From Candidatus Pacearchaeota archaeon (lineage in GTDB: Archaea; Nanobdellota; Nanobdellia; Pacearchaeales; GW2011-AR1), in contig JAGVXK010000018.1 of the NCBI GenBank assembly GCA_018303825.1, positions 17,028-81,027 of the forward strand: DNA of 64,000 nucleotides, written 5' to 3'. The position numbers and the translations under genes are program-made. This document shows positions 39,046 through 56,118 of the stretch, piece after piece. The notes under the pieces are model-generated. The model was not told the origin of the DNA. It searched no databases and saw nothing but the letters and a program-made list of their open reading frames with translations. Numbering within the stretch: the stretch's first letter is position 1; every line of letters starts with the position of its first letter.

Positions 39046-42000
39046 TGGCCTTTAGAAAAGCCCAGGGAAAGCTAAGGTTCATTAGTGAAAGGACGATGGT
39101 CAATAAATTGTTGATGTTGATGTTAATTGTTATAATTGGATTGGTACTTGGAGCTAATTATGTGGGTGCGGATTATACTTCTTCATTCGCAGGATATGGC
39201 AGCAGCTATTCAAGCGCAAGTTATCAATACCAACCAAGCTTTCAGACTTACTATGGAAATGATGTGAATACTTATTGGCCCATATTAAATGATAAAGATG
39301 TCTGCAAAGCAAGGCAGGATATGCTTTTACAAGTATCACCTGCAGGATGCCAGCCAATGGTTGTGAGAAGCGATTTATTGGCTGATCAGAATGTGCCGGT
39401 ATTTTGCCAGATTGATGCACTGCAGGTTAATCCTTTGATTGACATAAAAGAAATCAAAAACATAAATTTCAGAGGAAATTATCCCAAAGAAGTTGCAGGA
39501 GTTGGATTTCATCCAGCAAGGGCTGCATTGAATACAAGAGACAGGCTTCTAGGAAGTCCATTAATAAATAACATTGGATATGTGGTAGTTATCCTTAAAC
39601 AAACTAAGAACGAGAGCTCATTGCCTAAATTCGTTAATCTGACTTTGACTGGAAAGTTAGAATATAATGCAGGAAATGCATATGGAATAGGCACAAATGA
39701 ATTTTATCTTGAGCCTACAGATGATAATCAATGGGAAAATGCGAAGATCGCGAATAGTTTTTGGAATGGAAGATATTTCATAAGATTATATGATGTCGAT
39801 GAAACTTCTGCTTTAGTCTCGATATATGATGGGGACAGGGAAATTTCTAAGACGAGAATAAAACTTGGAGAGACTTCAGCTCCAATGTATCTTCCTGGAA
39901 GTTACTGTTCTTTTGGTCTGACGACAACTTATACAGGGCTTGCACAGTCTGATAAAAAAGCCAGAATAGAGATAAGCGATGAAAAAGGAACAAATAATCT
40001 TGATGTTTATCAGGGAAGCGAGTTTTTGAATGGAAGATGCAGAGTGAGCGAGATATTAGTAGATTCACAGACAGGAAGCACGGGAAGTGTAAAGATTGCA
40101 TGCGATAGTGATTTGATAAAATTGGAAATGAGGCCAAATCTATATGTTGAGAATCTGCCGTATGGAAGAACAAGTTTCAATGACATAGGAGCGAATAAGC
40201 AGGAATGCAAAGTTGATTTCAACGATGAAAAGAGTTATAGAATAACAAGAGATGTGGTTAAGGAAGCCAGCGGTGATTCTTATAGTTCCTGGACTACTTT
40301 GGAGATTTACAGTAATGATAAAAAAGATTGGACAAGTAGTTTCAGCTTGGATGATGCAACTAAAGACAAGATAAGGAATGCACTTGCGAATGCATGTGAT
40401 TTCAGAGATGATAAATTCTTGACTTCTGATGGAAAAACAGTCAATGATGTTGCAGAGAAAGCGTTCAATGATGCAATTGATTCATATGAAGAAGTTGCGA
40501 AGGATTATACTTCTGAGAGACAGGCTGCTACAGAGGGAGTTGCCAGATATGGAGAACTGGCATTAAGAGCTGCTCTTGATTTGGTTCAAGAGGCAACTTC
40601 AAAGAATTACGCAAAGAAGGAAACAAAATCAAGGTTATTGAATTTGTTCATTAGTTTATATCCTGAGAGTGCAAAGTTATATCAGAGCCAGAGGGATGCA
40701 CTATATCAATTAGATTCTAGTATCTCAACTAAATCTGTGAATGTCGATAATAAGTTCAGGACAATAAGACTTGTAAGCTTAAATAATCCTGAAAGCGCAA
40801 ATGAAAAGGCGAAGGCTAAGTTTACTTATGGCGGCAGAATTCTTGAATTAGTTAAAGGAGAAGCTAAGCCATTAAAGACAAATGCAATGATTAATGTCAC
40901 AAGCTTCGATGCTTTGCATGCAACTATAAGAACCAACTGCGTTACAAAGGATAATGGATATGAAATAAAGACTGAAAGCGGGAAGCCAGTCTATCAGTCT
41001 TCTATAACTCTCAGCCTTGGAGAAAGCGAGAATGTGTGCGGAGAGCCTCTTGTCTTCAAAGATACTGATTTGAAGAAAGTTGCTAAGATAAGAATCAGCC
41101 CTACTGCGTATGGCCCTGAAACAGAGACAAATATATCTGTCAAGATTGGAATTGAAAAGAGAGCAATACAATTGAGTCCTGAAAAGACAAAAGATATGAT
41201 TCTTAATATAAATAAGAGCATACAAAAATGGGAAAGCATTTCAAAGAGTTTAGTAAAGGTAGAAACAGGGTTGAAGGCAGCTTGTTTTGCAACTTCTGCT
41301 GTGCTGACTGTCAAGACTTTCCTTTATGGGATAGATGGAACTGCCACCGCAAGACAGAAAGTGATGACTGGAGATTATGGGTGGAACAAGAGATGCAACG
41401 ATGCGATAACTAAGAAGTGGCTTGATGTAAATGCAAATGGTGGAGAATTTGAACAGGGAATAGACAAGAATGTTAATTATGGAAGCATAATACAATGCAT
41501 AAATGATAATACTGCATCAATTGAAAAGGATGTTCAAACTACGAAGAATGCTCTGGTAGATACAAATAAAGTTGTGAAGGTTGCTCAGGATAGCGCCACC
41601 ACTAAGGGAATATTAAATCAAGATTTGGCTACCAAGGCAATGATAGATAAAATAGGAGCAGACTGCAAGCAATTTATAGAATTGCTTCCTGCAGTTGTTA
41701 GAGATTCAAAGACTACAATTTATCCAGTTACATTATCTCAATCTAGAGATATTTATGCGAATTGCCTGATGCTGAAACAGAATCCGAATGATCAGAATGC
41801 TCTTCTTTCTATGAAATCATTTTCAGAAAATGCGAAAAATACAATGACAGATTATGAGAAATTTGCAAGGTCTCAGGCATCAAATGATATTCTCCCTATA
41901 AATACTGGAACTGGAACAGCATTGAAAGGGAAGTTCTACCCAATTGTAGGAAATACCATTGGAGAAATACCAGTAAGCGGGGCGAGCATACCAGCAGGAG

Positions 42001-45000
42001 CAACTCATGCAGTAAGATTAGATAATCCCGCAACTATAGAATATGATAATGGCATCTGGGGCAAAGTATCTATTGGAGCACCATTTATAGTTGTTGGAAC
42101 AGAATTGAATGGGAAGTTGCGACCTCTCGATGTATTCAAGTATGAACCTAAGTTTGAAAATGGAAAAGTGACTTCTGCAGTTATTTCTCAGATACCAAGT
42201 GAGAGTTATCAGGGTTCTAGTGGTGCTAGTTTGTTTATGTCAAAAAATGGCTATACAGGATTTGAAGAATTCGGGCAAGGACTTTATGGAAATACTATAA
42301 GAGAACAGGACAGAGCAGTATTATATTTTATATCTGGGCCCGATAAGGATTTGCCAAGCCAGGTTCCATTTGATGTTAACAATGGATGGTATGTAAAGGT
42401 TCAGGCGAGTTCATTTAGTCTTGGGAGCAATGCAGTAAAGAGTTATGATGCTTCTGGATTGCCTAAAGACTGGCAGATATGCAATGTTGGAAGCGATGGA
42501 ATGATAGGAAGTAATGATGATTGCCAGGCATTTAATCAGGCTTCTCTTGGAGCTACTATTCTTGGATTAGATGCAAAAACTTCGCAGGATTTGGTGCAGA
42601 AGTCCCAAAAAGCAATTTTGGATGCTGCTTCTCAAAAGAATACAAATACAAAACAAGTGAGCATATTTGGGCAGCCAATGAGAGTTGATTTCCAGAATCC
42701 AATGGAGAATGTACAATGCTCTAACTTTATGACTGCCGGAGATTGTAAATTATTATTCAATGTCTGCGACCCAGTTATATGTCCTGCGAGCAGATGCAAT
42801 CTTGGAGGGGCTTATAGGGTAGCGAATGTTCAACAGACAGGAATTGTGGGCTCTGCATTATTGTGTTTGCCAAATGCAAGAGAAGGAATTCTTCTTCCTG
42901 TTTGCGTTTCGGGAATTAGAAATGGAATCGATGCTTATGTTTCTTTATTGAAACAACATAGAGATTGTTTACAGCAGAATTTAGACACTGGAGAATTAGT
43001 TGGAGTTTGCGATGAAATACAATCTATTTATACTTGCGAGTTCTTCTGGAGACAGGTGGCTCCTATTGCTAGTATGTTATTGCCTAAATTGGTTGAAAAT
43101 GTTTATTCTGGAGGACAGGGAACAGGTGTTAATGGGGGAGGAGAATATTTATTCGTTCCTCAAGCATGGGATAATGCAAAGAATAGCATGGACTACTTTA
43201 CTAATTATTATGCGGAGAATACATTTAAAGCATTCCAAATAAGAAGTGTTGAAGAAGCAGGAACAGAAGTTTGCAGAGGATTTGTTTCTTTGAAAGCTCC
43301 AACATCTATAAAGACTTTATTAGAACCGGATAGTCCTCCTCAGTTTTATGCAAGATTTGATTCAACCACTTTCTCGACGGTAACTGTGCCTGCCACTGCA
43401 CAGTATAAAGTATTTTACTTTATCAATGCAGGAAATGATGCAGGAGTTTATTATTCAGTTTATTTGAAGAGTCCTCCTGAATCAGGATATTATTATTCAA
43501 ATCCAACAATTCAGATAGCAAATGGATATATTTCTAAAGGACAAAGTTCGAGTCAGACTTTGGATAAGACTGCTCCTGAAGGATATAAAGAGCTATGTGT
43601 AAGAATAAATAATGAAGAAGAATGCGGGTTCAAACAGGTTTCAACAGACTTCAGCGTAAATTATCTTAGAGACCAGTACGCAAAAGACCAGCTTACTAAC
43701 ACAAATATTCAAACTCAGGCAGAATGTGTATCTGGAACATCTAGTCTTGCAGCTGTTGGGGCTAATTTGAACTTGCAGTCTGCCGCTCAGGAGGCGGCAA
43801 TGCCTGATATTTCTCAGAGAGGGATAGTAAGAATATGTGCAACATTGAATCCTGGAGGTAGCACAGACCCTACAAGATATATTCCTGTTGGAATTTGCGG
43901 CGATGCTAATTTGAAGTGCTGGCTCGACAAGACAAGTGTAAACAATGCAATAACTGATGCTAATCTCGGAGTGAAGAATGCAACCTTACAAGAGTTAGAG
44001 CAAACGAATATTGATGCTCTTATTGCACAAGGAGAAATTCTAAATAATGAAGTGGCTGTTTCAAGCATAAAAGAAATAAATAACAGAAAAGATATTTTAA
44101 GGGCGAATTTAGATTCTAATAAGAATATTATCAGCGATGCACAAGCCTTGGAATTGTCAATTAATGATTTGTATGGCAAGCTGGTATTGAATAATCATAA
44201 GGCATGGCTGTTGCTTATAAGGGCTGAGGTAAAAGCAATGGAAGCTGAATATTATATGAAGAATATAGCTACAAAGACATTACCTTTAAGCAGAGTCAGC
44301 AGCACAACAACCGCTGGAATAACACAAACACATAGCATAAGTTTTGCCCAGGATATAGATGCTGCAACAGGAATGGATGTCACAAGAATATTTATAGATA
44401 GAAACCCTGACAGTTATTATTATATCTATAATGATCCTGAAAGAGGAAATATATTATACACTAATAAAATAAGTGGACCAAATACTCAAGAAGATAATCA
44501 GGTTGGAACAGTAGACAGAAGCAATATAATACAAGTTTATGCGAGTTATGCAGGAGATACAGATTTAAGCGTAATAAATGGGCAGAGATTAACATTTGAT
44601 AATTCTGGAATTCCGCAAGCATTAACAGTGAAAACAACTGCTCCTGCGGCGTCAGCAGCTGCAACAACTGCAAATGAATTAGTATTTACTTTCCAAGATG
44701 GCACAATTTCTTGGAACTTAGAATATAGATTTCACAATGGTAAATGGCAGGCTACAAATGGGGGTGTACTTACAACAATACCTAATCCTTTACCACAAAG
44801 TTATAGAGATGCGTTTACTGCTACCACTGTTGCAAGTATGGAAAAACTTTCTAAAGCAAGTTCGCTTCAGGAAGGATTGAAGATATTAATAGATAGAACA
44901 TTGGCAAATAATGAAGGAGGATGGTTTGCAAATACTGATTTACTTGCTGGCAAATTCGATTTGGATAGTAAGGGAGAGTTTACAAGTTCTTCTATTAGTG

Positions 45001-45200
45001 GGATTAATTCCATTTATCGATATGGTTCGAATGGGTGGGAATATTATGCTTCAGGCACAAATCGTGTCTGGATTCCGGTAAAGGATTTAGTTATTTCTAA
45101 GGATAAGATGAATCTTGTTTTTGACAGTGATAAGACTCTTGTTAATCAATTATCAAATCAAGATTTCTATGGTGGTGCGTTGATATTGTTTAGTTCTTAA
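39045..45200 (+). CDS. Giant secreted Cys-rich protein, 2051 aa
   Basis: N-terminal signal MVNKLLMLMLIVIIGLVLGANYVGA; Cys clusters (CSNFMTAGDCKLLFNVCDPVICPASRC); TAATG coupling to the upstream gene. Confidence 0.85.
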   Translation: MAFRKAQGKLRFISERTMVNKLLMLMLIVIIGLVLGANYVGADYTSSFAGYGSSYSSASYQYQPSFQTYYGNDVNTYWPILNDKDVCKARQDMLLQVSPAGCQPMVVRSDLLADQNVPVFCQIDALQVNPLIDIKEIKNINFRGNYPKEVAGVGFHPARAALNTRDRLLGSPLINNIGYVVVILKQTKNESSLPKFVNLTLTGKLEYNAGNAYGIGTNEFYLEPTDDNQWENAKIANSFWNGRYFIRLYDVDETSALVSIYDGDREISKTRIKLGETSAPMYLPGSYCSFGLTTTYTGLAQSDKKARIEISDEKGTNNLDVYQGSEFLNGRCRVSEILVDSQTGSTGSVKIACDSDLIKLEMRPNLYVENLPYGRTSFNDIGANKQECKVDFNDEKSYRITRDVVKEASGDSYSSWTTLEIYSNDKKDWTSSFSLDDATKDKIRNALANACDFRDDKFLTSDGKTVNDVAEKAFNDAIDSYEEVAKDYTSERQAATEGVARYGELALRAALDLVQEATSKNYAKKETKSRLLNLFISLYPESAKLYQSQRDALYQLDSSISTKSVNVDNKFRTIRLVSLNNPESANEKAKAKFTYGGRILELVKGEAKPLKTNAMINVTSFDALHATIRTNCVTKDNGYEIKTESGKPVYQSSITLSLGESENVCGEPLVFKDTDLKKVAKIRISPTAYGPETETNISVKIGIEKRAIQLSPEKTKDMILNINKSIQKWESISKSLVKVETGLKAACFATSAVLTVKTFLYGIDGTATARQKVMTGDYGWNKRCNDAITKKWLDVNANGGEFEQGIDKNVNYGSIIQCINDNTASIEKDVQTTKNALVDTNKVVKVAQDSATTKGILNQDLATKAMIDKIGADCKQFIELLPAVVRDSKTTIYPVTLSQSRDIYANCLMLKQNPNDQNALLSMKSFSENAKNTMTDYEKFARSQASNDILPINTGTGTALKGKFYPIVGNTIGEIPVSGASIPAGATHAVRLDNPATIEYDNGIWGKVSIGAPFIVVGTELNGKLRPLDVFKYEPKFENGKVTSAVISQIPSESYQGSSGASLFMSKNGYTGFEEFGQGLYGNTIREQDRAVLYFISGPDKDLPSQVPFDVNNGWYVKVQASSFSLGSNAVKSYDASGLPKDWQICNVGSDGMIGSNDDCQAFNQASLGATILGLDAKTSQDLVQKSQKAILDAASQKNTNTKQVSIFGQPMRVDFQNPMENVQCSNFMTAGDCKLLFNVCDPVICPASRCNLGGAYRVANVQQTGIVGSALLCLPNAREGILLPVCVSGIRNGIDAYVSLLKQHRDCLQQNLDTGELVGVCDEIQSIYTCEFFWRQVAPIASMLLPKLVENVYSGGQGTGVNGGGEYLFVPQAWDNAKNSMDYFTNYYAENTFKAFQIRSVEEAGTEVCRGFVSLKAPTSIKTLLEPDSPPQFYARFDSTTFSTVTVPATAQYKVFYFINAGNDAGVYYSVYLKSPPESGYYYSNPTIQIANGYISKGQSSSQTLDKTAPEGYKELCVRINNEEECGFKQVSTDFSVNYLRDQYAKDQLTNTNIQTQAECVSGTSSLAAVGANLNLQSAAQEAAMPDISQRGIVRICATLNPGGSTDPTRYIPVGICGDANLKCWLDKTSVNNAITDANLGVKNATLQELEQTNIDALIAQGEILNNEVAVSSIKEINNRKDILRANLDSNKNIISDAQALELSINDLYGKLVLNNHKAWLLLIRAEVKAMEAEYYMKNIATKTLPLSRVSSTTTAGITQTHSISFAQDIDAATGMDVTRIFIDRNPDSYYYIYNDPERGNILYTNKISGPNTQEDNQVGTVDRSNIIQVYASYAGDTDLSVINGQRLTFDNSGIPQALTVKTTAPAASAAATTANELVFTFQDGTISWNLEYRFHNGKWQATNGGVLTTIPNPLPQSYRDAFTATTVASMEKLSKASSLQEGLKILIDRTLANNEGGWFANTDLLAGKFDLDSKGEFTSSSISGINSIYRYGSNGWEYYASGTNRVWIPVKDLVISKDKMNLVFDSDKTLVNQLSNQDFYGGALILFSS

Positions 45201-45242: not shown

Positions 45243-45327
45243 AACCCTGCATTGGTTGGCATTTTAATGGGTTTGATTTTCTCTTGTGATAAGTAAGGTT
45301 TAAATAGCATATGTATTATTTTTACAT

Positions 45328-45702
45328 ATGCTACAAAGATACATATTAGAGCATGCTCATAAACATGGATTGTCTGAGAATGAGATTTATTTCACATATA
45401 AAATCTTTTTTGGCACGCTTGTTTCAGAGTCGAGATTAAGGATAATCAATCTTTTGAGAAGTGGGGAAAAGAATGTCTCAGAGATAATAAAAGAATTGAA
45501 TATGAATCAATCAAATGTATCGCATGATCTTTTCAGGCTAAAAAAATGTGGTTTTGTACTCGTTGAGGCTAAAAAGCAATATAGATATTATAAGCTTAAT
45601 GAAAAGACAATTAGACCACTTATGGCTTTGATAGATAAACACATGGCCGAATATTGCATCCACATATTCAGAGCAGACAAGGAGACTAAAAATGGAGAAT
45701 AA
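45328..45702 (+). CDS. ArsR/SmtB-family transcriptional regulator
   Basis: SRLRIINLL..KNVSEI..QSNVSHDLFRLKKCGFV..RYYKL; C-terminal HMAEYC. Confidence 0.9.
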   Translation: MLQRYILEHAHKHGLSENEIYFTYKIFFGTLVSESRLRIINLLRSGEKNVSEIIKELNMNQSNVSHDLFRLKKCGFVLVEAKKQYRYYKLNEKTIRPLMALIDKHMAEYCIHIFRADKETKNGE

Positions 45703-46183
45703 AAATGTTGGATGGATGTTATTAGGAATATCTGTTGTAATAGGAGTATTTATCTTTTTATTCAATAGCACATTGATGGGGGCTGTAAAAAATGCCTGTT
45801 TTATACAGCACGGAGATTTCAAATCTTGCGAGATGTATGACAGTGTGAATTATCAGACTTATTTTGCTCTTGGTATCACGGGTATAATGGTAATTGTCAG
45901 TTTGTTTCTGATATTCTCGAAGTCGAACGAAAAGATAATAGTCAAGAAAGTAAAAGAGAAGAAGATTCAAAAAGAAGTCAATCTTTCATCTTTTAGACCT
46001 GAAGAAAAGCAAGTTTATAATCTTGTCAAAGAAAATGGTGCTATTTTTCAGGGAGATTTAATTGAAAAGACTGAATTTAGCAAAGCCAAAATGACAAGGA
46101 TTGTTGACAAACTTGAGGGCAGCGGTCTTGTGGAAAGAAAAAGAAGGGGCATGACGAATGTTGTCGTGCTAAAGGAAGATTAA
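45692..46183 (+). CDS. Membrane-anchored winged-HTH (MarR-like) protein
   Basis: Two TMs flanking CFIQHGDFKSC; C-terminal GAIFQGDL..SKAKMTRIVDKLEGSGLVERKRRGMTN. Confidence 0.82.
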   Translation: MENKNVGWMLLGISVVIGVFIFLFNSTLMGAVKNACFIQHGDFKSCEMYDSVNYQTYFALGITGIMVIVSLFLIFSKSNEKIIVKKVKEKKIQKEVNLSSFRPEEKQVYNLVKENGAIFQGDLIEKTEFSKAKMTRIVDKLEGSGLVERKRRGMTNVVVLKED

Positions 46184-46198
46184 TAAGATGGAGAAATC

Positions 46199-46441
46199 AT
46201 GAAAGAAAAAGAAAGCAATATTGTCCTTGCAGTAGTGATTGTTTTAGTTATCTTGTTATTTTTTGGAGGATTTGGCATGATGGGTTTTTGGGGAGCAGGA
46301 ATGATAAGTGGATTTTTTGGTGGATTTGGGTTTATGTGGATATTTGGATGGATGATTACGATATTAATATTAGTGGCTCTAATCCTATTCATTTTGTGGT
46401 TAGTTAAACAGTTACAAGGAGGTAAAAAGAAAAATGGGTGA
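46199..46441 (+). CDS. Small Gly/Met/Phe-rich membrane protein
   Basis: FGGFGMMGFWGAGM..GGFGFMWIFG between two TMs. Confidence 0.72.
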   Translation: MKEKESNIVLAVVIVLVILLFFGGFGMMGFWGAGMISGFFGGFGFMWIFGWMITILILVALILFILWLVKQLQGGKKKNG

Positions 46442-46697
46442 TAAATTAGATGCGAAAAAGGCAGGATTAGCTTTGGCTATTGTAGCAGGTATTGCTTATA
46501 TTGCCTGTGCGATATTAGTTGCAGTTGCGCCGCTGGGAACAGTCAATGTGCTCGGGGCCTTATTTCATGGGATAGATATAAGCGAGATAGCAACTACACC
46601 AACTCTTGGAAGAACATTTTTGGGATTGATTGAGATATTTGTACTTGGTTATATTCTCGGCTGGTTGTTCGGAGTTATTTACAATAAAATAAAGTAG
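46434..46697 (+). CDS. DUF5676-like membrane protein
   Basis: AYIACAILV..LFHGID..GWLFGVIYN. Confidence 0.72.
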   Translation: MGDKLDAKKAGLALAIVAGIAYIACAILVAVAPLGTVNVLGALFHGIDISEIATTPTLGRTFLGLIEIFVLGYILGWLFGVIYNKIK

Positions 46698-46741
46698 TTT
46701 TGCGAACATTTATATTTGTTATTTTTTATATATTTGCAAAG

Positions 46742-47455
46742 ATGACAGAATTAAGTAATTTTTTTAATCCTTGGATGGTATTTAGCATGATATTTTTACT
46801 AATTTGGATTATATTTTTTGTTTTCGCTAAAAAATCGAGGAAAGAGATGTTTTTGACAAGCATTCTAACAGCTCCATTTGGTTTAACAGAGATTTTATTT
46901 GTTCCCGAATATTGGAACCCTCCATCTTTATTCAATCTCGCAGCAAAAACACGATTTGATATAGAAAGCATAATATGGTGTTTTGCTGTCGGAGGAATTG
47001 CAGCAATTTTATTTGAATCTATATTCAAAGTAAGACACATTAAAATGAAGGACAAAGAGAGGCATAAAACAAGGCATAAATGGCACTTATTTACTTTAAT
47101 ATTGCCAATTCCAGTATTTTTAATTTTATTTTTCACTACATCACTAAATCCTATCTATACTTCAAGCATTTCAATGCTTGCTGGTGCAATTGGCTCACTC
47201 TATTGCCGTCCTGATTTAAAGAGAAAAATACTTTTTGGAGGTTTGTTATTTTTAGTTTTGTACTTTATAGCTTTCTTTTTGCTCGTTTTATTTTATCCAG
47301 GAATAGTAGAAAGTGTCTGGAACTTAAATGCTATATCTGGAATTCTTGTTCTTGGAGTGCCGTTAGAAGAATTAATATTTGCATTTACTTTTGGCATGAT
47401 GTGGAGCAGCGTTTATGAGCATATTAGATGGTATAAATTATTGAGTTACCATTAA
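46742..47455 (+). CDS. Lycopene cyclase-domain membrane protein
   Basis: PEYWNP..DIESIIWCF..GVPLEELIFAF. Confidence 0.75.
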   Translation: MTELSNFFNPWMVFSMIFLLIWIIFFVFAKKSRKEMFLTSILTAPFGLTEILFVPEYWNPPSLFNLAAKTRFDIESIIWCFAVGGIAAILFESIFKVRHIKMKDKERHKTRHKWHLFTLILPIPVFLILFFTTSLNPIYTSSISMLAGAIGSLYCRPDLKRKILFGGLLFLVLYFIAFFLLVLFYPGIVESVWNLNAISGILVLGVPLEELIFAFTFGMMWSSVYEHIRWYKLLSYH

Positions 47456-47543
47456 ACTATTTGTGACTAATTTCTTCTTTTAAAATGTATGGTGGAACTA
47501 GTTCCGCAAAAGTGCATATATAATTCAATTTCTTGGAAAAGTC

Positions 47544-48266
47544 ATGGAACACGAAAAATATCATGCTGAAGAGCATGACGATATGAAAGGAGGAAAAAAG
47601 TCCAACACTGAGACTACAGTCCAGTATGTTATAATTGCGGTGCTTGTGATCTTACTTATTTACAGTGGAGTAAAGATATACGGAGCGGGCAGTTCTAGCA
47701 TATCAGGAAATGTCGCTATGGATTTAGGCACAGTTTCTGCTTTAGATGTATTGCCAAAGGGAACACCTGCTGTTTATGGAAAAGAGCTTGGAGTATCATA
47801 TAATGATGTCTCTGTAAGCAATCCGCAATTAGCAGATGCTACAATGCAAAAACTGGCAAAATATGAGGATATGCAATTAAATAGCGCGCAAATGGAGAGA
47901 TACATAAGAATTGGGAGCTCGATTGCATGTGAGTATTGTTGCGGTGCTCAAACACTTGTCTTTGAGAATGGAGAAAGAGCTTGTGGATGTGCTCATAGTT
48001 ATGCTATGAGAGGATTAGCAAAATATTTGCTAACTAAGCATCCCGATATAAGTGATATAGAAATCCTAAACGAACTAGGGAAATGGAAAGTTTTGTTCTT
48101 CCCAGGAGTTCACGAGCAAAAAGCTGAAGTTTTGAAAGCAAATGGAATTGACTACACAAATCAAACTGTAGGATATATCTATCTTGCCTCAAACATATAC
48201 CGGGGCGCAGAAAATCAGGCAACTGCAAGTTCAAGCGGAGGTAGTCAGATGGTTGGCGGATGCTAA
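47544..48266 (+). CDS. Single-pass Cys-motif protein ending MVGGC
   Basis: His/acidic N-tail, TM, CEYCCG..CGCAHS, Ser/Gly linker, QMVGGC*. Confidence 0.85.
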   Translation: MEHEKYHAEEHDDMKGGKKSNTETTVQYVIIAVLVILLIYSGVKIYGAGSSSISGNVAMDLGTVSALDVLPKGTPAVYGKELGVSYNDVSVSNPQLADATMQKLAKYEDMQLNSAQMERYIRIGSSIACEYCCGAQTLVFENGERACGCAHSYAMRGLAKYLLTKHPDISDIEILNELGKWKVLFFPGVHEQKAEVLKANGIDYTNQTVGYIYLASNIYRGAENQATASSSGGSQMVGGC

Positions 48267-48326
48267 TAGGGGCTTTTATTTTTTTATTTTTCCCTTAGCA
48301 TACAATTAAATAAAACAAGAGAAAAA

Positions 48327-48575
48327 ATGGATTGCTGTAATACAAAACAAAACACAAAGAAAGAAAACAGAGAAGAAAACATGAAAGGAGGTAGGGACAT
48401 GACAAAGATTAACAAAAATGTTCTGCTGTGGATTATAATTGGAGCACTAGTGATAGCCACAATATTCCTGACATTTAAAGCTTCATCGATAGGTACAAGT
48501 TCCGCACAAGCGACAGCGTCAGCTGCCAGAACCGTAGCATCAACTGCATCTAGTGGAATGGTCGGAGGTTGCTAA
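48327..48575 (+). CDS. Small single-pass protein ending MVGGC
   Basis: MDCC start at 48327, or ATG 48399 after a GGAGGT RBS; TM; Ser/Ala/Thr linker; SGMVGGC*. Confidence 0.82.
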   Translation: MDCCNTKQNTKKENREENMKGGRDMTKINKNVLLWIIIGALVIATIFLTFKASSIGTSSAQATASAARTVASTASSGMVGGC

Positions 48576-48582
48576 AATTAAT

Positions 48583-48834
48583 ATGGAAATAAGAAAAAGC
48601 ACATTATTATGGATTGCAATCGGAGTATTGTTTTTAGCAGTGCTTTTTTTGATGTATAAAGCATCAACTATCTCTGGAAACGCAGTTTCTAGTTCTGGAA
48701 AGCTAGATACAAGTAGTTGGTCAGAAAATGAAAAGATGAATTATGAGATGCATGGAACAATTCCTGCAAGACTGCAAGGAAAAGTAGCATCATCTAGTGC
48801 ATCAAGCGGAGCGGGAATGGTCGGAGGATGCTAA
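48583..48834 (+). CDS. Small single-pass protein ending MVGGC (paralogue of the previous gene)
   Basis: LLWIAIGVLF..YKAS; NEKMNYEMHGTIP; AGMVGGC*. Confidence 0.82.
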   Translation: MEIRKSTLLWIAIGVLFLAVLFLMYKASTISGNAVSSSGKLDTSSWSENEKMNYEMHGTIPARLQGKVASSSASSGAGMVGGC

Positions 48835-48900
48835 CAAAATTTAAACTTTTTATTTTTATTTTTTAATTTAATATTGAGAATTAAACACAAAATGATAAAG

Positions 48901-49449
48901 ATGAACATACGAAATAAGCAAGATAAAAACTATAAATTATTTGGATTTTTAATTTTAATACTATTCGGGATAATCACAGTTATACCTGGTGTTATGGCTC
49001 ATTGCCCTCTTTGCACTGCAGCTACGGTCATTGGTGTAGGGGTAACAAGATCACTAGGATGGGATGATTCTATTGTAGGAGTATTTATAGGAGCAATGAT
49101 AGTCTCTTTAGCTTTATGGGTGAATAATCTGCTAAAAAAGAAAAATATTGGAGGAGGCAATGCCATTCTAAGAATAATTAGCATAGTATTGCTTACCATT
49201 GCTCTTACCTTTTTGAGCTTTTATTATGCAGGAATATTCGGTCCAGCTAACATTTATAGGATATTCGGTATGGAGAAGATTACTTTTGGTGCAATATCCG
49301 GAGGCGTCGTAAGCTTGGCTACTTTTTGGATTAGCAATGAAATAAAGAGAAAGAACAATGGAGATGTTTTGTTCAATTATCAGACTATGGCTATTACATT
49401 TAGTGCATTGATACTTAACGCTTTAATATTTTGGATGGTGTTCAGATGA
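48901..49449 (+). CDS. Multi-pass membrane protein with HCPLC motif
   Basis: MAHCPLCTAA followed by several TMs. Confidence 0.78.
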   Translation: MNIRNKQDKNYKLFGFLILILFGIITVIPGVMAHCPLCTAATVIGVGVTRSLGWDDSIVGVFIGAMIVSLALWVNNLLKKKNIGGGNAILRIISIVLLTIALTFLSFYYAGIFGPANIYRIFGMEKITFGAISGGVVSLATFWISNEIKRKNNGDVLFNYQTMAITFSALILNALIFWMVFR

Positions 49450-49943
49450 AAACTAAAAACTTCATTAAAATAATACTTAAGATAAAAGAAAAGAATGAAC
49501 TAGATTTATCAGCAGGAGAAGATTTAAGCATAGCCTTAATGAATCTTGTAAGCCTGGAAGAGCATTCTTTCTTTAGTTATGTCAAAACAAAAGATGAAAA
49601 GTTTCTTGAGATACTTGAAACATGCAGAGAATTAAGAAAAAGACTGCTTGCTAAATTAGTCAACAAAGATGAGAGCGAGACATGGTGCATGAGCAAGCAC
49701 TTACTTGCTTCCAGCATGAGGATGTATGAAATCGGGAACAGACTCTTACATGAAAATAATATTGAAGAAGCTAAAAAATTATATACGGATGCAGCAGAAC
49801 TATATGCTCTATTTTGGAAACTTAATTTTGATAAAAATATGAGCAAGAAAGATACAATAAAGAGTTATGTGAGCTATAAAGATAAAGAAAAGAAGAGTGT
49901 TTTCTCTGGAATTAAAAAACTGTTGGAGTGTTGTAAAGAATGA
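49446..49943 (+). CDS. Helical protein with EEH, WCMSKH and C-terminal ECCKE motifs
   Basis: LMNLVSLEEH; ETWCMSKHLL; LLECCKE*. Confidence 0.75.
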   Translation: MKTKNFIKIILKIKEKNELDLSAGEDLSIALMNLVSLEEHSFFSYVKTKDEKFLEILETCRELRKRLLAKLVNKDESETWCMSKHLLASSMRMYEIGNRLLHENNIEEAKKLYTDAAELYALFWKLNFDKNMSKKDTIKSYVSYKDKEKKSVFSGIKKLLECCKE

Positions 49944-50395
49944 AAGAACATCACTATAATTATTTGTGGGCTGGAATTATATTAATATCTATACTCGGAA
50001 CTTTCTTTCTAATTAAGATGACTTATGCCAATCCTCTCAATCTGCCAAATTATGCATTTACTAAACAGGCTATAAAGGAAGCTTATTCGTATGCAAAATT
50101 AAATGAAAGTGAACTTGACGGATTGCCTTGCAATTGCGGATGTATGATTGACGTAGCAGGTCATAGCGATGGATTACATTCAAGAGGATTGATAGATTGC
50201 TTTATGCAGGGAGATATAAACAATGGAGGCAAATGGGATAGTCATGCAAGTGAATGCGGATTATGTTATGAAGATGCGCTTTATGCAAAAAATCTGTATG
50301 AACAGGGAAAAGCCAAAGAAGATATTAAGCAAGCATTAGAAGCAAAATATGTGGCACAGACAATAAGCAACAACACAGTTTATGGGACAAAATAA
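49940..50395 (+). CDS. PCYCGC-motif-like membrane-anchored protein
   Basis: LPCNCGC..GH..H..LIDCF..HASECGLC. Confidence 0.82.
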   Translation: MKEHHYNYLWAGIILISILGTFFLIKMTYANPLNLPNYAFTKQAIKEAYSYAKLNESELDGLPCNCGCMIDVAGHSDGLHSRGLIDCFMQGDINNGGKWDSHASECGLCYEDALYAKNLYEQGKAKEDIKQALEAKYVAQTISNNTVYGTK

Positions 50396-50396
50396 A

Positions 50397-50597
50397 ATGA
50401 ATCATAAAGAAAAACACAATCATGGTATTGGGCATATGATAAAAATGGCTTTAGCCTGCATTATACCTTTCGCAATTATCCTTATACTCCTGCTTTTTGG
50501 CGTATCAAGTAAATGGACAACAATTTGGGCTATCGGACTCATGATATTTCTTCATGTCTTGATGATGAAAGATCATTTTAGAGGAGACCCAAAGTAA
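50397..50597 (+). CDS. Small His/Met-rich membrane protein (DUF2933-like)
   Basis: HNHGIGHMIKMALACIIP..FLHVLMMKDH. Confidence 0.68.
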   Translation: MNHKEKHNHGIGHMIKMALACIIPFAIILILLLFGVSSKWTTIWAIGLMIFLHVLMMKDHFRGDPK

Positions 50598-50600
50598 AAA

Positions 50601-51026
50601 ATGGAAATTAAGAAATCTATTGTGTATGGAATATTGTCTGGATTAGGAATACTTTTATTCTTCCTTGCTATTTTAACTACATTTAAAGGTTATGGAATTG
50701 CAGTATATGAATTCAAAAGATTATGGTATTGGCTTATCCCTTTGGCAATAGGTTTTGGAACTCAGATTGGCTTATATTTCTCAATAAAACACGATGCCAT
50801 TATGAAAGCAGGAGTTAAGGCATCTGGGACAGTTTCTGGAGGTTCTATGGTTGTTTGCTGTAGCCATTATCTATTAAGCATAATTCCTATAATTGGCGTA
50901 ACAGGGCTAACAGAGTTTTTAATGGCTTATCAAAAAGGATTTTTTGCCATAGGAATTACTTCAAGTATAGCTGGAATTCTCTTGATGTTAAATCATAAAA
51001 GAAAGATGAAAGGAGGATTATGCTAA
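50601..51026 (+). CDS. Multi-pass membrane protein with CCSH motif
   Basis: GTVSGGSMVVCCSHYL. Confidence 0.78.
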   Translation: MEIKKSIVYGILSGLGILLFFLAILTTFKGYGIAVYEFKRLWYWLIPLAIGFGTQIGLYFSIKHDAIMKAGVKASGTVSGGSMVVCCSHYLLSIIPIIGVTGLTEFLMAYQKGFFAIGITSSIAGILLMLNHKRKMKGGLC

Positions 51027-51317
51027 ATGGAAGAGAAAGAGACAATACATATCAATGGAAAAGTAATCGGCGTAATAGTTATTTTATTGCTTCTTGTATC
51101 AGGCACTTTTTGGATATTCATTCTTCAAAAACAAGCTCATACCTCGCCAAATACGGGCGGAAACAGCAATACTGGTTTGACAACTGCTCCAGCGGATGAT
51201 AAATATAGTAATTTACCTGAGAAATGCAGACCACCGGCAGGAACAGATATAACCCAATGGAAAGAACATTTAGGGCATCATGCGGAATTTCAAGAGTGTT
51301 TAAAATATTTCCCATAG
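51027..51317 (+). CDS. Single-pass protein with C..HLGHH..C motif
   Basis: LPEKCRPP..WKEHLGHHAEFQECL. Confidence 0.72.
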   Translation: MEEKETIHINGKVIGVIVILLLLVSGTFWIFILQKQAHTSPNTGGNSNTGLTTAPADDKYSNLPEKCRPPAGTDITQWKEHLGHHAEFQECLKYFP

Positions 51318-51326
51318 AAATTTAAA

Positions 51327-51548
51327 ATGCATAAACTAAAAATAAAAATAACTGGCTTGTATTGCGCAAGATGTGCTGAACAAATCTCTAAAATGATGTA
51401 TGAGAAATTCAAAATAAAAAGGATAAACTTAGAAATGCAAGACCATATAATGGTTATATCCTCAAATTCAAGTATATTGCGGGGCAGATTAAATAAAGAG
51501 ATAGAAAAGATGGGTTACGGCCCGATTAGCTTTTTGAAAGTTGACTGA
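51327..51548 (+). CDS. Heavy-metal-associated (HMA/CopZ-like) domain protein
   Basis: IKITGLYCARCAEQI..IEKMGY. Confidence 0.82.
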   Translation: MHKLKIKITGLYCARCAEQISKMMYEKFKIKRINLEMQDHIMVISSNSSILRGRLNKEIEKMGYGPISFLKVD

Positions 51549-51777
51549 AAAAATTTCTATAAAAGAGTATTTTAGTGCCTTTAAAGAGTTAGTGATTAGC
51601 CCATTTATCAGTCAGTGTGAATATTGCAAAAAGAGATTAAAAAAGGCCAATGTATAGAAAGAGTTGTTTTAGTTTACTGGGCAAGAGTAAACAGAAAAAA
51701 ATACTTTTGTAATTTAAAGCATGCAGATTTATACGAAAAAAGTAAGGGCTTATTGGGGTACAGATAAACCAGCCGGA

Positions 51778-51861
51778 TGCGGGGACTAGGATTCGAACCT
51801 AGGAAGGCACTAAGCCATCAGGTCCTAAGCCTGACCCGTTAGACCGCTCCGGCATCCCCGC
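51778..51861 (-). tRNA. tRNA-Leu(TAG)
   Basis: GCGGGGA/TCCCCGC; TCAGG-CTTAGGA-CCTGA; long variable arm. Confidence 0.95.
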
Positions 51862-51970
51862 ACACATATGCGGGGTTTAGATGTTATAAAAAGCTTTTCT
51901 TTATCAACGAGCTGTAAAGTTAACGACACCCATTAGATAGATTTTTATAGGCAGAAAGAAGGAATTTGAG

Positions 51971-52540
51971 ATGGCTAAAGGCAATAATCAAGATAGTGTT
52001 GTTTCTGATGAAGAGAATGAAAGAATAGCAGAATTAATTAGATATTCTGAGAATCTTGGATGTTATTTTGAAAAAAATTCTTTAGATTACGACACTATTA
52101 ATTTTCTTGCTGTTGGAAAGGTAATTGCCTGCTTAAATCAATATCGGGGAAGAAATGGTGCGGATATTAGGACTATGCTACGCACAGCGGTATATAGGGG
52201 ATTTATTGATGTTCATAGAAGAAGAAGTAGGGAAGTGAGCCTTGATGAAGTTGATTCTGATGGAAGAAAAAAATTTGATTTTGACGAGGAATCTCGTTTA
52301 GATCAAAGAAGGGATTCATATCAGAGAGATTTTCTTTTAGAAAATGTGATAAGGGAAGCGATGTCAAAATTACCTCAAAGGCATAGAACTATCTTAGAAT
52401 TAAGATTTTATCAGGGAATGACTTATTCTGAAATTGCCAGACTATTAGGTAGGAAGCAGTCAACTATAGGAACAAATATCTATTATGGTATAAAAAATCT
52501 TAAGAGGATATTAGCTGGTAAAATTGATTTTAGAAGTTAA
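51971..52540 (+). CDS. Sigma-70 (ECF-like) family protein with region 2- and region 4-like segments
   Basis: TMLRTAVYRGFIDVHRRRSRE (region 2-like); AMSKLPQRHRTILELRFYQGMTYSEIARLLGRKQSTIGTNIYYGIKNL (region 4). Confidence 0.82.
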   Translation: MAKGNNQDSVVSDEENERIAELIRYSENLGCYFEKNSLDYDTINFLAVGKVIACLNQYRGRNGADIRTMLRTAVYRGFIDVHRRRSREVSLDEVDSDGRKKFDFDEESRLDQRRDSYQRDFLLENVIREAMSKLPQRHRTILELRFYQGMTYSEIARLLGRKQSTIGTNIYYGIKNLKRILAGKIDFRS

Positions 52541-53476
52541 TTATTTCTTGGCAGATGCCTTCTCTGTGGCTGCAACTTTTGCCTTTAATTTATCCTCAAA
52601 GCCAAGCCTGTCTATAAGTTCTTTGTATCTATTTCTGATTGTGACTTCTGTTATGCCTGCTACGTCTGCTACTTCTCTCTGTGTTTTCTTTTCATCATTC
52701 ATCAATGCTGCTACATATAATGCGGCTGCTGCAATGCCCGCCGGACCTCTTCCTGATGTCAACTCTGAGATATCTGCTTTCTTTAGAATCTTAAGAGCTT
52801 CATTCTGTGTTTTTGGAGAAAGGTGAAGGATAGATGAAAATCTTGAAATATAATCTTTTGGACTTGAAGGAGTTACTTTTATTTTCAATTTTCTTACGAT
52901 AAATCTATATGTTCTTCCAATTTCTTTTCTTTCAACATCTGAGGCATTTGCAATCTCATCTAAGGTTCTTGGAATGTTGTATGACCTACATGCTGCGTAA
53001 ATACATGCTGCGATGACTGATTCCATTGATCTTCCACGAACAAGACCTCTTTGTAAGACATAATTGTAAACTCTTGAAGCTTCATCCCTTACAACTGATG
53101 GAAGATTTAAAAATGATGCAACTCTTCTAAGCTCAGCCATTGCCAACCTGAGATTTCTTTCAATTGAAGTGGAGACTCTTTCCTGCCACTTTTTCAATCT
53201 TAAGAACTTACGGGTTTGCCCTGCTTCTAATTTATATATATCTGAAATCTCCCCGACGTTTGTTGTTAGTCCTTTATCGAACTTTTGCATGGACATTGGC
53301 GCTCCTGAACGTCCTCTTTTGTCAGATTTATCAAATTGACCTCCAGCATCCTGTCCAGAGTCAACCATTTTTTCTTCGACGATAAGACCGCATTCGTTAC
53401 AGATAACTTCTCCCCTTTGTTCATCATAAGTTAAGTCAACAGAGCCACATTCGGGACAGCGTTTTACGTATACCAT
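52541..53476 (-). CDS. tfb: Transcription initiation factor IIB
   Basis: CPECGS..GEVICNECG Zn ribbon; two cyclin repeats; GITEVTIRNRYKE. Confidence 0.97.
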   Translation of the reverse strand: MVYVKRCPECGSVDLTYDEQRGEVICNECGLIVEEKMVDSGQDAGGQFDKSDKRGRSGAPMSMQKFDKGLTTNVGEISDIYKLEAGQTRKFLRLKKWQERVSTSIERNLRLAMAELRRVASFLNLPSVVRDEASRVYNYVLQRGLVRGRSMESVIAACIYAACRSYNIPRTLDEIANASDVERKEIGRTYRFIVRKLKIKVTPSSPKDYISRFSSILHLSPKTQNEALKILKKADISELTSGRGPAGIAAAALYVAALMNDEKKTQREVADVAGITEVTIRNRYKELIDRLGFEDKLKAKVAATEKASAKK

Positions 53477-53566
53477 TTTATTTTGAAGTAGTTTTTGGGG
53501 AAAGATTTATAAAGGTTTCCCAAGAAGAGTATATAAACCTTTCTATTTGATTTTTTTGTCGACGAG

Positions 53567-53584
53567 TAAGAACCGAGGTTCTTA
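53567..53584. promoter_or_regulatory. Palindrome TAAGAACC-GA-GGTTCTTA upstream of tfb
   Basis: 8-2-8 perfect inverted repeat; same TAAGA/TCTTA arms as at 9920 and 63043. Confidence 0.4.
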
Positions 53585-53639
53585 TTAATTCCTATAAACT
53601 CCTATAAATAAATGAATTCCTACGAAATATAAAGAGGTA

Positions 53640-53993
53640 TTAAATTAAAGAGGCATTAACTTGGCCTTCTTGTGTCGGTCTGTTTGTTATTCTTGCTTTT
53701 CCTAAGCTTGTATCAATTATGGCCCCCTTTAACAGTCTATTTTGTCTGGCCAAGAATCTGTTCTGCGGGGTTTCAACAACGTTGACTATATCTGCTCTTT
53801 GCATCTTGCCAGCTTTTGTCAGGACGTTTGCTTTATTCGACCTTAGAAGGATTGTTTTTGAATTCCCCCCTTTGACACGAAGAGCTTTTGTCTTGGTTTC
53901 ACCTAAGACTGTGAAATTTTCCTTGTTTCTATTTTCGAATAATTTTCTTTTTCTTAATTTGTGGTATTTTCCACCAGTAATCTTTCTACCCAT
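53640..53993 (-). CDS. rps8e: 30S ribosomal protein S8e
   Basis: GRKITGGKY..RVKGGN..LKGAIIDTSLGKARITNRPTQEGQVNA. Confidence 0.95.
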   Translation of the reverse strand: MGRKITGGKYHKLRKRKLFENRNKENFTVLGETKTKALRVKGGNSKTILLRSNKANVLTKAGKMQRADIVNVVETPQNRFLARQNRLLKGAIIDTSLGKARITNRPTQEGQVNASLI

Positions 53994-54372
53994 TCTCATA
54001 ATTATGTTTGAAAAAGGTGCTTTATAAATCTTATTGGAAATTTGGAAAGCCATCAAGGTTGGCAGGCTTATGGAAAATTGGCAAATTCGTTTAGTCTTAT
54101 AAAGAGAATATTAAAAGAGATTCATAAAGTCAAAGAAGAAAGATTAAAGCAAATTGCTATTTTTAAGCTCAATTAGGAAGATTTAAGTTCCGTAGACGCA
54201 ACAATAATATGGAAATAAGATTTACATTGTGTATCATGATAACATTTAAATGAGCCTTTAGAAAAGCCTCGGGAAAGGTAGGTTGTTACACAAAAGTCAA
54301 ATATAGCTCTTAGGAAGACTTCGGAGAAGATTAGGTTGCTATCGCAATGTTTAAATAGCAAAAATCAAAGAG

Positions 54373-54621
54373 ATGAGTATGGCGAACACGATTGAAAGAC
54401 CTTTAGACCTTTTGAATATGTCAAAGGGAAAAGAAGTCTTAGTGCAGGTAAAGAGTGACAGGCAGTTTGTCGGGACTCTTAAGGCATTTGACATCCACAT
54501 AAACGTGGTGTTGGATAATGCCAAAGAGCTAGAGAATGGAGAGGTGAAGAAGAGCATTGGTCTGACCTTTTTGAGAGGAGATACAATTATCTTTATATCT
54601 CCTGCTTCGACATCCAAGTGA
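54373..54621 (+). CDS. Sm-like (Lsm) protein
   Basis: ERPLDLL..GTLKAFDIHINVVL..LRGDTIIFISP. Confidence 0.93.
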   Translation: MSMANTIERPLDLLNMSKGKEVLVQVKSDRQFVGTLKAFDIHINVVLDNAKELENGEVKKSIGLTFLRGDTIIFISPASTSK

Positions 54622-54906
54622 TTCTTGGCCTTTTGCATTTTTTAATTTAGGCATTCAGAAAAAATTAAACTTGCTTGGAAGTATGTTATTTTTTATATAA
54701 ATATTTTAAAGCTATTAGGACTGGTTTATCTAATGAAGCAGGTCCAAGCCTATTTTTATGAATTATGCAGAAAGTTTGATTTTGGAGATGAAGGGGCAAA
54801 GAGGATTAAGGTTCGCGAGCAAATTCCTTTGAAAGGTATTTGCACTTCTCTTAATGGTCTGCTTGTTTCTTTGCATGATGACTAATATAGTGTTTTTAGG
54901 CAAACG

Positions 54907-55215
54907 ATGTATTCTGACGAATTTCATACAGCTTTATATATTTGGAACAATTTTTTTAAAAATACTTTAAAGTTAAATGATTTTCCAAAGGACCTGATAA
55001 ATTCATTAAGGAGAATTATTGATGTTGACCGAGGATTTTCTGCAAGAGATATTGTTCTCGGGGGCATTGGTGTTGGTCCAGTTCTTGATGATCGCAGAGT
55101 TCTTTCGATTAGAGAATTTAATGATGTTTCTGAAAAGCTAAGGATAAAATATCCGGAGCTGTTTGCAGAGACTGAATTTCATAGAGTTCTTCATTATAGA
55201 GGTAGAAAAGAATAA
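54907..55215 (+). CDS. Hypothetical protein
   Basis: 102-aa ORF whose stop abuts the rnz stop. Confidence 0.5.
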   Translation: MYSDEFHTALYIWNNFFKNTLKLNDFPKDLINSLRRIIDVDRGFSARDIVLGGIGVGPVLDDRRVLSIREFNDVSEKLRIKYPELFAETEFHRVLHYRGRKE

Positions 55216-56118
55216 TTATATTTCAACAACATCAAGGTCGTTTGGGACTTTGGTATTCTTGAAAACTTTTTTTGCTTGTTTTTCTATCAATTGTTGATTG
55301 TGCTCATATCTTTGCGATAAATGGACTAAGTAAAGGGCTTTTGCCTTTGCCTTCTTTGCTATATTTGCTGCCTGCTTTGATGTGAGATGGTTGTACTCAT
55401 AGGCTTCTTTTTCTAATTCGGAGGCATGCGAAGCTTCTACAATGACAATGTCAGAATCTTTAGCTAATTCAGAGGCTTTGTTGTTCATTTTTGTATCTAA
55501 GATAATAGTAATCTTTCTTCCTTTCTGTTTGTAAATCACAGATTTTGCTTTTATTGTCTTTCCATTTAATTTTATATCCTTGCCATGCTGGAGATCTTTC
55601 ATTAATGGACTATTTGGAACCTTGAATTTTTTTAATTTCTTTTTATCAAGCCGAATTTTTTCCTTTTCAATGAATGAATATGCCAAGCAGTGAGTGCCGT
55701 GAGCCATTTCCTCTGCTTGAATTGTAAAATCTTCATTCTCAAATACTTTTCCAGGAGAAACTTCATGAATTTTTATATCAATTTTGCCCCAGAAGACGAA
55801 GGTTTCAAACATCTTTGACATAAAATGCTCTGTTCCTCTTGGGCCATATATGTGAAAGGTTTTTTGATAGTTATTTAATGCCATGGTTTGCAATAATCCT
55901 GGAATTCCAAGGATGTGGTCTCCATGCCAATGTGTAATAAAGAGCCTTGTCAGTTTCGTTGTACTTATTTCTTTATATCTGAATTGTCTTTGAGTGCCTT
56001 CCCCGCAGTCGAACAAGAGATTTTCATTTTTATAATTAAGCAAAAAGGCTGAATGGTTGCGCCTTTTTGTTGGAATTGCACTTCCTGTTCCTAGAAATGT
56101 TAATGTTATCGGTTCCAT
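55216..56118 (-). CDS. rnz: Ribonuclease Z
   Basis: LGTGSAIP, DCGEGTQ, THWHGDH, H245-type NHLT, VHLSQRY. Confidence 0.96.
   Translation of the reverse strand: MEPITLTFLGTGSAIPTKRRNHSAFLLNYKNENLLFDCGEGTQRQFRYKEISTTKLTRLFITHWHGDHILGIPGLLQTMALNNYQKTFHIYGPRGTEHFMSKMFETFVFWGKIDIKIHEVSPGKVFENEDFTIQAEEMAHGTHCLAYSFIEKEKIRLDKKKLKKFKVPNSPLMKDLQHGKDIKLNGKTIKAKSVIYKQKGRKITIILDTKMNNKASELAKDSDIVIVEASHASELEKEAYEYNHLTSKQAANIAKKAKAKALYLVHLSQRYEHNQQLIEKQAKKVFKNTKVPNDLDVVEI

Follow-up and report, generated by a model that had tools for sequence, protein, structure and literature searches.

A divergent sigma-70-family gene with predicted ECF-like architecture occupies a recurrent slot between tfb and tRNA-Leu in a Pacearchaeota genome

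Archaeal transcription is initiated with the help of TBP, TFB and TFE. In bacteria, sigma-70 factors and the extracytoplasmic function (ECF) sigmas among them bind the core enzyme through residues of region 2.2 and melt the promoter with aromatic residues of region 2.3. Genes of the sigma-70 family were reported in DPANN archaea by Castelle et al. (2021, PMC8204110), whose description of these genes states that anti-sigma factors were not found and leaves the mechanism open. Here, we analyze such a gene in a 64-kb window from the genome of a Candidatus Pacearchaeota, a tiny groundwater archaeon (genome G000; all positions are given in the numbering of this window). The gene lies at 51971–52540 on the forward strand between a tRNA-Leu gene and tfb, and its 189-aa product is predicted to be an intact and divergent sigma-70-family protein that has an ECF-like two-domain architecture, as judged from the NCBIfam model TIGR02937, the Pfam families Sigma70_r4_2 and Sigma70_r4, profile comparison with ECF sigmas and the predicted fold. 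A sigma-70-family gene in such an archaeon is no lone oddity and belongs to a known, unexplained class; new are the very high divergence of the subfamily and its fixed address beside tfb.

Region 4 of the protein (residues 126–178) matched Pfam Sigma70_r4_2 with 49.5 bits (cut-off 25.7) and Sigma70_r4 with 46.3 bits (cut-off 24.1), confirming the helix-turn-helix (HTH) that a previous sequence-only reading of this DNA had recognized in the 189-aa open reading frame (ORF). The surrounding sigma4 domain (residues 110–182, 52298–52516, forward strand) was modelled with pLDDT values of 92–98 and aligned with the sigma4 domain of SigL (3hug_C) over 76 residues with a VIA-align Z score of 11.6 and a root-mean-square deviation of 2.4 Å. 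The region 2-like segment claimed by the same reading is supported by the superfamily model, by profile comparison and by fold matches, whereas Pfam Sigma70_r2 did not match the protein, though the same model detects the second sigma of this genome. TIGR02937, which describes the sigma70-ECF superfamily, was matched with 64.7 bits (cut-off 42.9) along residues 50–180, corresponding to positions 38–164 of the 165 positions of the model. In hhalign, a profile of the subfamily described below matched an ECF sigma profile with 99.85% probability (E 7.6e-31, residues 26–184), in a comparison that is biased toward ECF because the ECF set was drawn from the best matches of the sigma-like protein itself. 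The specific NCBIfam ECF models scored far below their cut-offs (Sig70_bacteroi1 48.9 versus 126.4 bits, SigM 44.4 versus 148, SigW 32.9 versus 209).

With an alignment of 77 sequences, AlphaFold produced a model with a pLDDT of 83.6, compared with 40 when the sequence of the protein was used alone. The model contains helices at residues 13–29, 39–55 and 66–87, followed by the linker and a four-helix sigma4 domain. The three N-terminal helices form the sigma2-like domain (residues 13–87, 52007–52231, forward strand), in which regions 2.2 and 2.3 are degenerate and which contains the loop YRGRNG...TML; an acidic linker of about 22 residues with pLDDT values of 57–78 (residues 88–109, 52232–52297, forward strand) connects it directly to sigma4. 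No region 3 is present, and the Pfam models of regions 1 and 3 did not match, so that the layout is that of the two-domain ECF sigmas. The best structural match was SigL (6dv9_F) with a Foldseek E value of 2e-5 and a VIA Z score of 11.9 with 174 of 174 residues aligned, although helical bundles readily give middling Z scores. All leading structural matches were sigma factors that aligned across both domains (SigL, SigH, AlgU, SigK, SigW and sigmaE). These matches speak against a generic HTH lacking a region 2, and the description of the locus as a bacterial-type, ECF-like sigma-family protein in an archaeal chromosome stands.

A column alignment against 69 ECF sigmas locates the divergence. 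The region 2.2 motif DAEDl.QetF of ECF sigmas is replaced by DYDTINFLAV, the region 2.3 motif F.TWL by IRTML, with Met in place of Trp in five of five subfamily members, and the recognition helix GTVKSRLxRA by STIGTNIYYG. The core-binding residues of region 2.2 and the melting residues of region 2.3 of bacterial sigmas are therefore not kept, whereas the sigma4 core LPxxxRxxxxLxFxxGxxxxEIA is. The subfamily consists of the sigma-like protein, P0002, P0003 (encoded by genome G009), P0009 and P0022 and carries the signature (Y/W)(R/E)GRNGA..TM(L/V) in the loop joining helices 2 and 3 of the sigma2-like domain, with G60, G63, T68 and M69 invariant. An exhaustive HMMER search of 1.84 billion representative sequences returned a single match below 1e-10 besides the protein itself, and no relative exceeded 32% identity. 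The nearest relatives, P0002, P0003 and P0009, are 28–32% identical and are followed by about 1,580 generic ECF-like sigmas, and a word-index search for homologues found only the protein itself. Looking up the clusters of the nearest ECF-like relatives gave generic names without taxonomy, among which no donor could be named.

Matches above the TIGR02937 cut-off came from 29 of the 61 close relatives; for the phylum as a whole, the tally was 131 of 301 genomes (approximately 44%; 129 of 299 if the two unpublished genomes G560 and G561 are left aside). Such genes were already published for DPANN archaea (Castelle et al. 2021, PMC8204110), and their presence is not a rare event.

The sigma-like gene resides in a genuine archaeal chromosome and is not an assembly or binning artefact, because its flanks are archaeal, independent assemblies are identical and contigs bridge the junctions. 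Besides the tRNA-Leu, tfb and rps8e genes already noted from the sequence, the neighbourhood encodes an LSm protein and tRNase Z, and the TFIIB repeats of the TFB were matched with 164 bits. The exact protein is encoded on 14 contigs, and 6.6 kb of DNA (48971–55540) are identical in three independently deposited assemblies. In three sequencing runs from three studies, a single contig spans from the interior of tRNA-Leu (51786–51811) to position 52648 inside tfb with zero differences, and the base composition across the gene is continuous with its surroundings. The nearest tfb loci were found in metagenome-assembled genomes named Candidatus Pacearchaeota, Woesearchaeota or Nanoarchaeota. A low-depth contig of run X1 joins 51861 to 52608 and omits the sigma-like gene, with a shorter side of merely 26 letters, and several contigs depart from the window sequence at about 52610; both weakly hint at related populations in the same samples whose slot is empty or differently filled.

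The genome comprises 805 kb in 23 contigs, is 85.7% complete and encodes TFB, TBP, TFE and an archaeal RNA polymerase; at this completeness, neither a bacterial rpoB above the cut-off nor rpoA was found in it. A function of the sigma-like protein as stand-in for a missing TFE was considered and rejected, as TFE, TBP and TFB are all present. A second sigma of 239 aa is encoded on contig C20 as a single gene in archaeal context. Rpo1 is encoded by a single ORF of about 1145 aa on contig C22 (L099:1113-4550) that is not split into A' and A'', and the Rpo1 ORFs of most relatives in the order that were searched (loci L101–L129) are likewise unsplit, with lengths of 1133–1203 aa.

To place the locus in its phylogenetic context, we compared tfb loci across GTDB species, taking the 80 best. 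The pair rps8e–tfb was kept in almost all of them, and 55 had a tRNA-Leu gene no more than 1.8 kb downstream of tfb; with the window included, these represent 56 species. S8e–TFB–tRNA-Leu is an ancestral synteny, in which the gap between tfb and the tRNA is a variable slot in an otherwise conserved block. The slot was empty (190 nt or less) in 21 of the 55 loci and contained only small ORFs in 10, a NAD kinase gene in eight (57–75% identical to each other) and a sigma-like gene in eight; the last two groups overlap because L144 and L171 carry both genes. A histidine phosphatase, an amino-acid kinase, a nucleotidyltransferase and ORFs without a recognized family were found as further slot contents. 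Counting the window, nine of the 56 species (about one in six) have a sigma-like gene in the slot, always convergent to tfb, and tRNA-Leu adjoins it in eight of the nine sigma-bearing loci that were scanned for tRNAs. Given this recurrence, the adjacency to tfb, which the sequence-only reading thought might be chance, is no isolated accident; a functional link between slot sigmas and tfb is at most putative. When the remaining convergent slot ORFs were screened for further diverged sigmas, only L208 qualified, with a match to Sigma70_r2.

Slot sigmas are of two types. The ECF-like type is found in G000, G009, L144, L165 and L171, while L149, L150, L157 and L208 carry a second type with a Pfam-detectable or near-threshold region 2 that resembles the C20 sigma. 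The gene order of the window, giant ORF – tRNA-Leu – sigma-like gene – tfb – rps8e – LSm – tRNase Z, recurs in G009, a genome from a different genus of the same family; there, the positional orthologue encodes 219 aa with 32% identity, is convergent to tfb and lies beside tRNA-Leu. P0002 and P0022 derive from short metagenome contigs that end in the 3' end of tfb (91–98% identical at the protein and about 80% at the DNA level); both sigma-like genes are convergent to tfb, and tRNA-Leu was detected upstream on the P0002 contig and not found on the short P0022 contig. Because positional orthologues are present in other genera, namely in G009 and on these two metagenome contigs, the gene is not the product of a recent transfer, and within this lineage, which includes several Pacearchaeota genera, it is inherited vertically in place.

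In a sigma tree, whose branches are long and weakly supported, six changes sufficed to explain adjacency to tfb compared with 9.2 in shuffled data, and none of 500 shuffles was as low, although the tfb-adjacent genes do not form one clade. On the tfb DNA tree, all sigma-bearing loci fall within one of two main clades and are scattered inside it, and L137, the window's nearest neighbour on this tree, carries a NAD kinase gene and no sigma-like gene in its slot. The sigma-like genes of the slot may thus descend from a single old gene that diverged fast and was lost many times, or may have arrived repeatedly at a permissive place. The sigma-like genes of L144 and L171 (G231) are most closely related to each other, but NAD kinase and sigma-like gene follow one another in opposite order in the two loci, which indicates a local rearrangement within the slot. 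In G096 (L050:1756-2148, also L165), the sigma-like gene and tfb are separated by the gene for a 130-aa protein that has two CxxC pairs and a membrane helix at its C-terminus and could be an anti-sigma-like partner in that species.

The ten syntenic orthologue pairs of G000 and G009 that were compared had a median identity of 57% and ranged from 32%, for the sigma-like gene, to 93%, for TFB; the N-terminus of Rpo1 is 87% identical in the same two genomes. Across the family, TFB is 82–95% identical compared with 24–32% for the slot sigma-like copies. Every slot copy examined was nevertheless an uninterrupted ORF of 189–306 aa in which the fold-forming positions and the sigma4 core were kept. 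The lack of stops and frameshifts at 24–32% identity, together with the maintenance of the hydrophobic core, the sigma4 motif and the promoter, speaks for purifying selection that probably acts on fold and expression and is accompanied by rapid change of the protein surface.

The promoter is of archaeal type. In the window, TATA hexamers peak at −29 to −27 before the ATG (15 of about 60 genes), and the archaeal TATA box of the sigma-like gene, TTTTTATAG (51942–51950, forward strand), contains a TTTATA hexamer starting at −27. As −29 to −27 is the geometry of leaderless archaeal mRNAs, this position implies that the predicted transcript is leaderless or near-leaderless. Of 11 sigma-like genes in the slot, eight carry a TATA-type hexamer between −28 and −24, and the 10-mer GGTTTTTA(T/A)A is common to four slot genes, two of each sigma type, which hints at a shared, inherited promoter; in the 64-kb window, this 10-mer occurs twice compared with 1.2 occurrences expected by chance.

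Classical sigma function in the G000 cell is excluded because no bacterial core enzyme is detectable in the 85.7%-complete genome and the core-binding and melting residues are degenerate. The function that we favor, with about an even chance of being correct, is that of a dispensable, lineage-specific DNA-binding transcription regulator. The gene would be transcribed from its own archaeal promoter, composed of a TFB recognition element (BRE) and the TATA box, as a near-leaderless mRNA, and its product would bind DNA through the well-kept HTH of sigma4, perhaps with help from the GRNG loop that the sigma2-like domain conserves, and would regulate promoters at which TBP, TFB and the archaeal RNA polymerase operate. 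We infer DNA binding because the isolated sigma4 domain of bacterial sigmas binds −35 DNA (e.g. PDB 2h27), and gene-specific regulators in archaea are mostly bacterial-type HTH proteins. Several points weigh against a regulator of this kind. The basic residues of ECF sigmas are missing from the recognition helix, where G and N stand in for K and R; DNA could be bound less tightly as a result, and full-length sigmas without core enzyme are usually poor DNA binders. The patchy distribution and the lowest identity in the neighbourhood would fit relaxed constraint as well, and the fold model, which was built on a mostly-ECF alignment, gives no independent proof of a sigma2 fold. DNA binding, target promoters and expression are all predictions.

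Relaxed constraint in its extreme form would make the gene an evolutionary leftover, i.e. a once-acquired sigma that drifts under weak or no selection and has stayed open by chance and for lack of time since its function was lost. The lowest identity among the syntenic genes, the lack of any relative above 32% identity among 1.84 billion representatives, the failure of the Pfam region 2 model with loss of the melting Trp and the region 2.2 motif, and the absence from most relatives are all as expected for such a relic. We consider this explanation unlikely because uninterrupted frames of 189–306 aa in all slot copies examined, at 24–32% identity, and the preserved hydrophobic core, sigma4 motif and canonical promoter point to purifying selection. 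Conflict-driven evolution could also account for the fast divergence, if the gene were cargo of a mobile element or virus targeting the tRNA-Leu area, or if it encoded an effector or decoy directed against the RNA polymerase of a bacterial partner. Integrative elements usually insert at the 3' side of tRNA genes, whereas the sigma-like gene is found at the 5' side; an integrase was not observed, and a search for direct repeats between 45000 and 52700 found no tRNA-derived or other att-like repeats flanking the gene. A variable slot beside a tRNA that is shared by two sigma types and several unrelated genes is in line with mobile cargo, as are matches to sigma families of the PHROG database (phrog_1740, 60.5 bits), and rpoS-like genes were reported in two DPANN viral genomes, one of them from a DPANN prophage (PMC12647753). 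A giant gene for a secreted-type protein is located nearby (39045–45200), and its counterpart in G009 lies directly beyond the tRNA. However, a single gene with a host-type promoter that is inherited in place across genera does not resemble cargo, the N-terminus is hydrophilic without signs of a signal sequence, and the degenerate core-binding residues argue against bacterial RNA polymerase as target, so that we regard both the cargo and the effector variant as quite improbable.

The recurrence beside tfb raises the question whether the protein could instead be an accessory or alternative initiation factor that docks on the clamp coiled-coil of the archaeal RNA polymerase or on the TFB/TBP complex, with a functional linkage to tfb. 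The archaeal clamp coiled-coil is homologous to the beta' clamp helices to which sigma2 binds in bacteria, and the corresponding segment of Rpo1 is nearly invariant in the order, indicating that a docking surface exists. The two-domain sigma architecture has been kept over long divergence, two sigma types recur beside tfb, always in convergent orientation and with an adjacency that is clustered on the tree though it takes six changes, and the presence of sigma-family genes in about 44% of the phylum genomes argues for some use. On the other hand, the subfamily does not conserve the core-binding residues of region 2.2, and a fast-changing protein is hard to reconcile with near-static partners (93% identity for TFB and 87% for the Rpo1 N-terminus). 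Most relatives, among them the one whose tfb is most similar, also lack the gene, and the slot houses unrelated genes such as the NAD kinase, so that the place may be merely permissive. Docking of this protein is therefore very doubtful in our view, and the wider proposition that the recurrent slot sigmas dock on the archaeal apparatus as lineage-specific alternative or modulating initiation factors, functionally linked to tfb, seems remoter still; if it were true, it would represent a working hybrid of the bacterial and archaeal initiation systems.

With regard to the direct neighbours, the tRNA-Leu gene (anticodon TAG, 51775–51862, reverse strand, called by ARAGORN) is divergent from the sigma-like gene, is separated from its ATG by 108 nt and forms the outer edge of the variable slot. 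On the other side, tfb (52541–53476, reverse strand) encodes a TFB of 311 aa with a zinc ribbon and TFIIB repeats (NF001658, 378 bits), and rps8e (53640–54056, reverse strand; Pfam Ribosomal_S8e, 101 bits) completes the S8e–TFB synteny. As recognized in the sequence-only reading, the stop codons of the sigma-like gene (52540) and of tfb (52541) abut without a gap. Among the 13 convergent pairs of the window, four have no gap at all and the median gap is 9 nt; we therefore rejected the abutting stops as a special feature, since zero-gap convergent pairs are common in this compact genome. The second cyclin repeat of the TFB itself reaches 23.9 bits with Pfam Sigma70_r4, just below the cut-off of 24.1, and the TFB cyclin repeat also triggers the sigma superfamily model in archaeal control genomes, resulting in false sigma calls in archaea.

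Beyond tRNA-Leu, a block of about 6.4 kb (45300–51700) separates the tRNA from the giant ORF. It contains genes for ArsR- and MarR-type regulators, a lycopene-cyclase-domain protein, a PCYCGC protein, small membrane proteins and an HMA-like protein and may be an acquired islet at the 3' side of tRNA-Leu, for which no att-like repeat was found. The giant ORF (39045–45200) encodes a secreted-type protein of 2051 aa; its G009 counterpart has 1980 aa with 51% identity across 697 aligned residues and directly abuts the tRNA. Further upstream, ARAGORN called a tRNA of 91 nt beside tRNA-Val (35498–35588) without assigning its identity and with the anticodon printed as 'gt'; this tRNA may contain an intron or be otherwise unusual.

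The occurrence of bacterial sigma genes in DPANN archaea has been published without being explained, and the present locus narrows the puzzle without solving it. It presents the gene as a native one, with an archaeal promoter, inheritance in place and a definable slot that is repeatedly occupied by sigma-like genes. Nine species and the additional metagenome contigs, with two sigma types at one genomic address, provide a small and comparable set of natural variants.

Compared with the DPANN sigma-70 homologues described as fam00359 by Castelle et al. (2021, PMC8204110), the locus is similar in that a sigma-family protein coexists with TBP, TFB and TFE in a verified Pace-/Woesearchaeota genome and has no anti-sigma factor. 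The protein, which may be a member of fam00359, is distinguished by belonging to a short, ECF-like subfamily with at most 32% identity to anything and no match to the Pfam region 2 model. The passages of that report dealing with the sigmas do not mention their genomic position, whereas here the position is defined by the slot between tfb and tRNA-Leu and by an archaeal promoter at −27. The C20 sigma of the same genome is different again, as it matches the Pfam models of regions 1.2, 2 and 4 (48.6 bits for region 2) and TIGR02937 with 107.5 bits, while the sigma-like protein is not recognized by the Pfam region 2 model; its E value against a C20-type profile was 3.6e-16, compared with 7.6e-31 against the ECF profile, which was favored by the selection of the ECF set. 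With bacterial group 4 (ECF) sigmas, such as SigL (6dv9_F, 3hug) and SigH of M. tuberculosis, sigmaE of E. coli (1or7, 2h27) and SigW of B. subtilis (5wuq), the protein, with its sigma2-like domain, linker and sigma4, shares a layout of about 190 aa without regions 1.1 or 3. Unlike these, it is encoded in a genome without detectable bacterial core RNA polymerase and has lost the QE motif of region 2.2 and the Trp of region 2.3, and its recognition helix is less basic. It also stands alone between tRNA-Leu and tfb; a co-transcribed anti-sigma factor and an autoregulated ECF promoter, two traits that are typical of ECF sigmas and not strictly defining, are missing, and the promoter is of the archaeal TATA type. 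TFB, its neighbour, is a functional analogue as a promoter-recognition family with an HTH, but overall the two are unrelated in fold and origin, and TFB is conserved at 82–95% identity where the sigma-like protein retains 24–32%.

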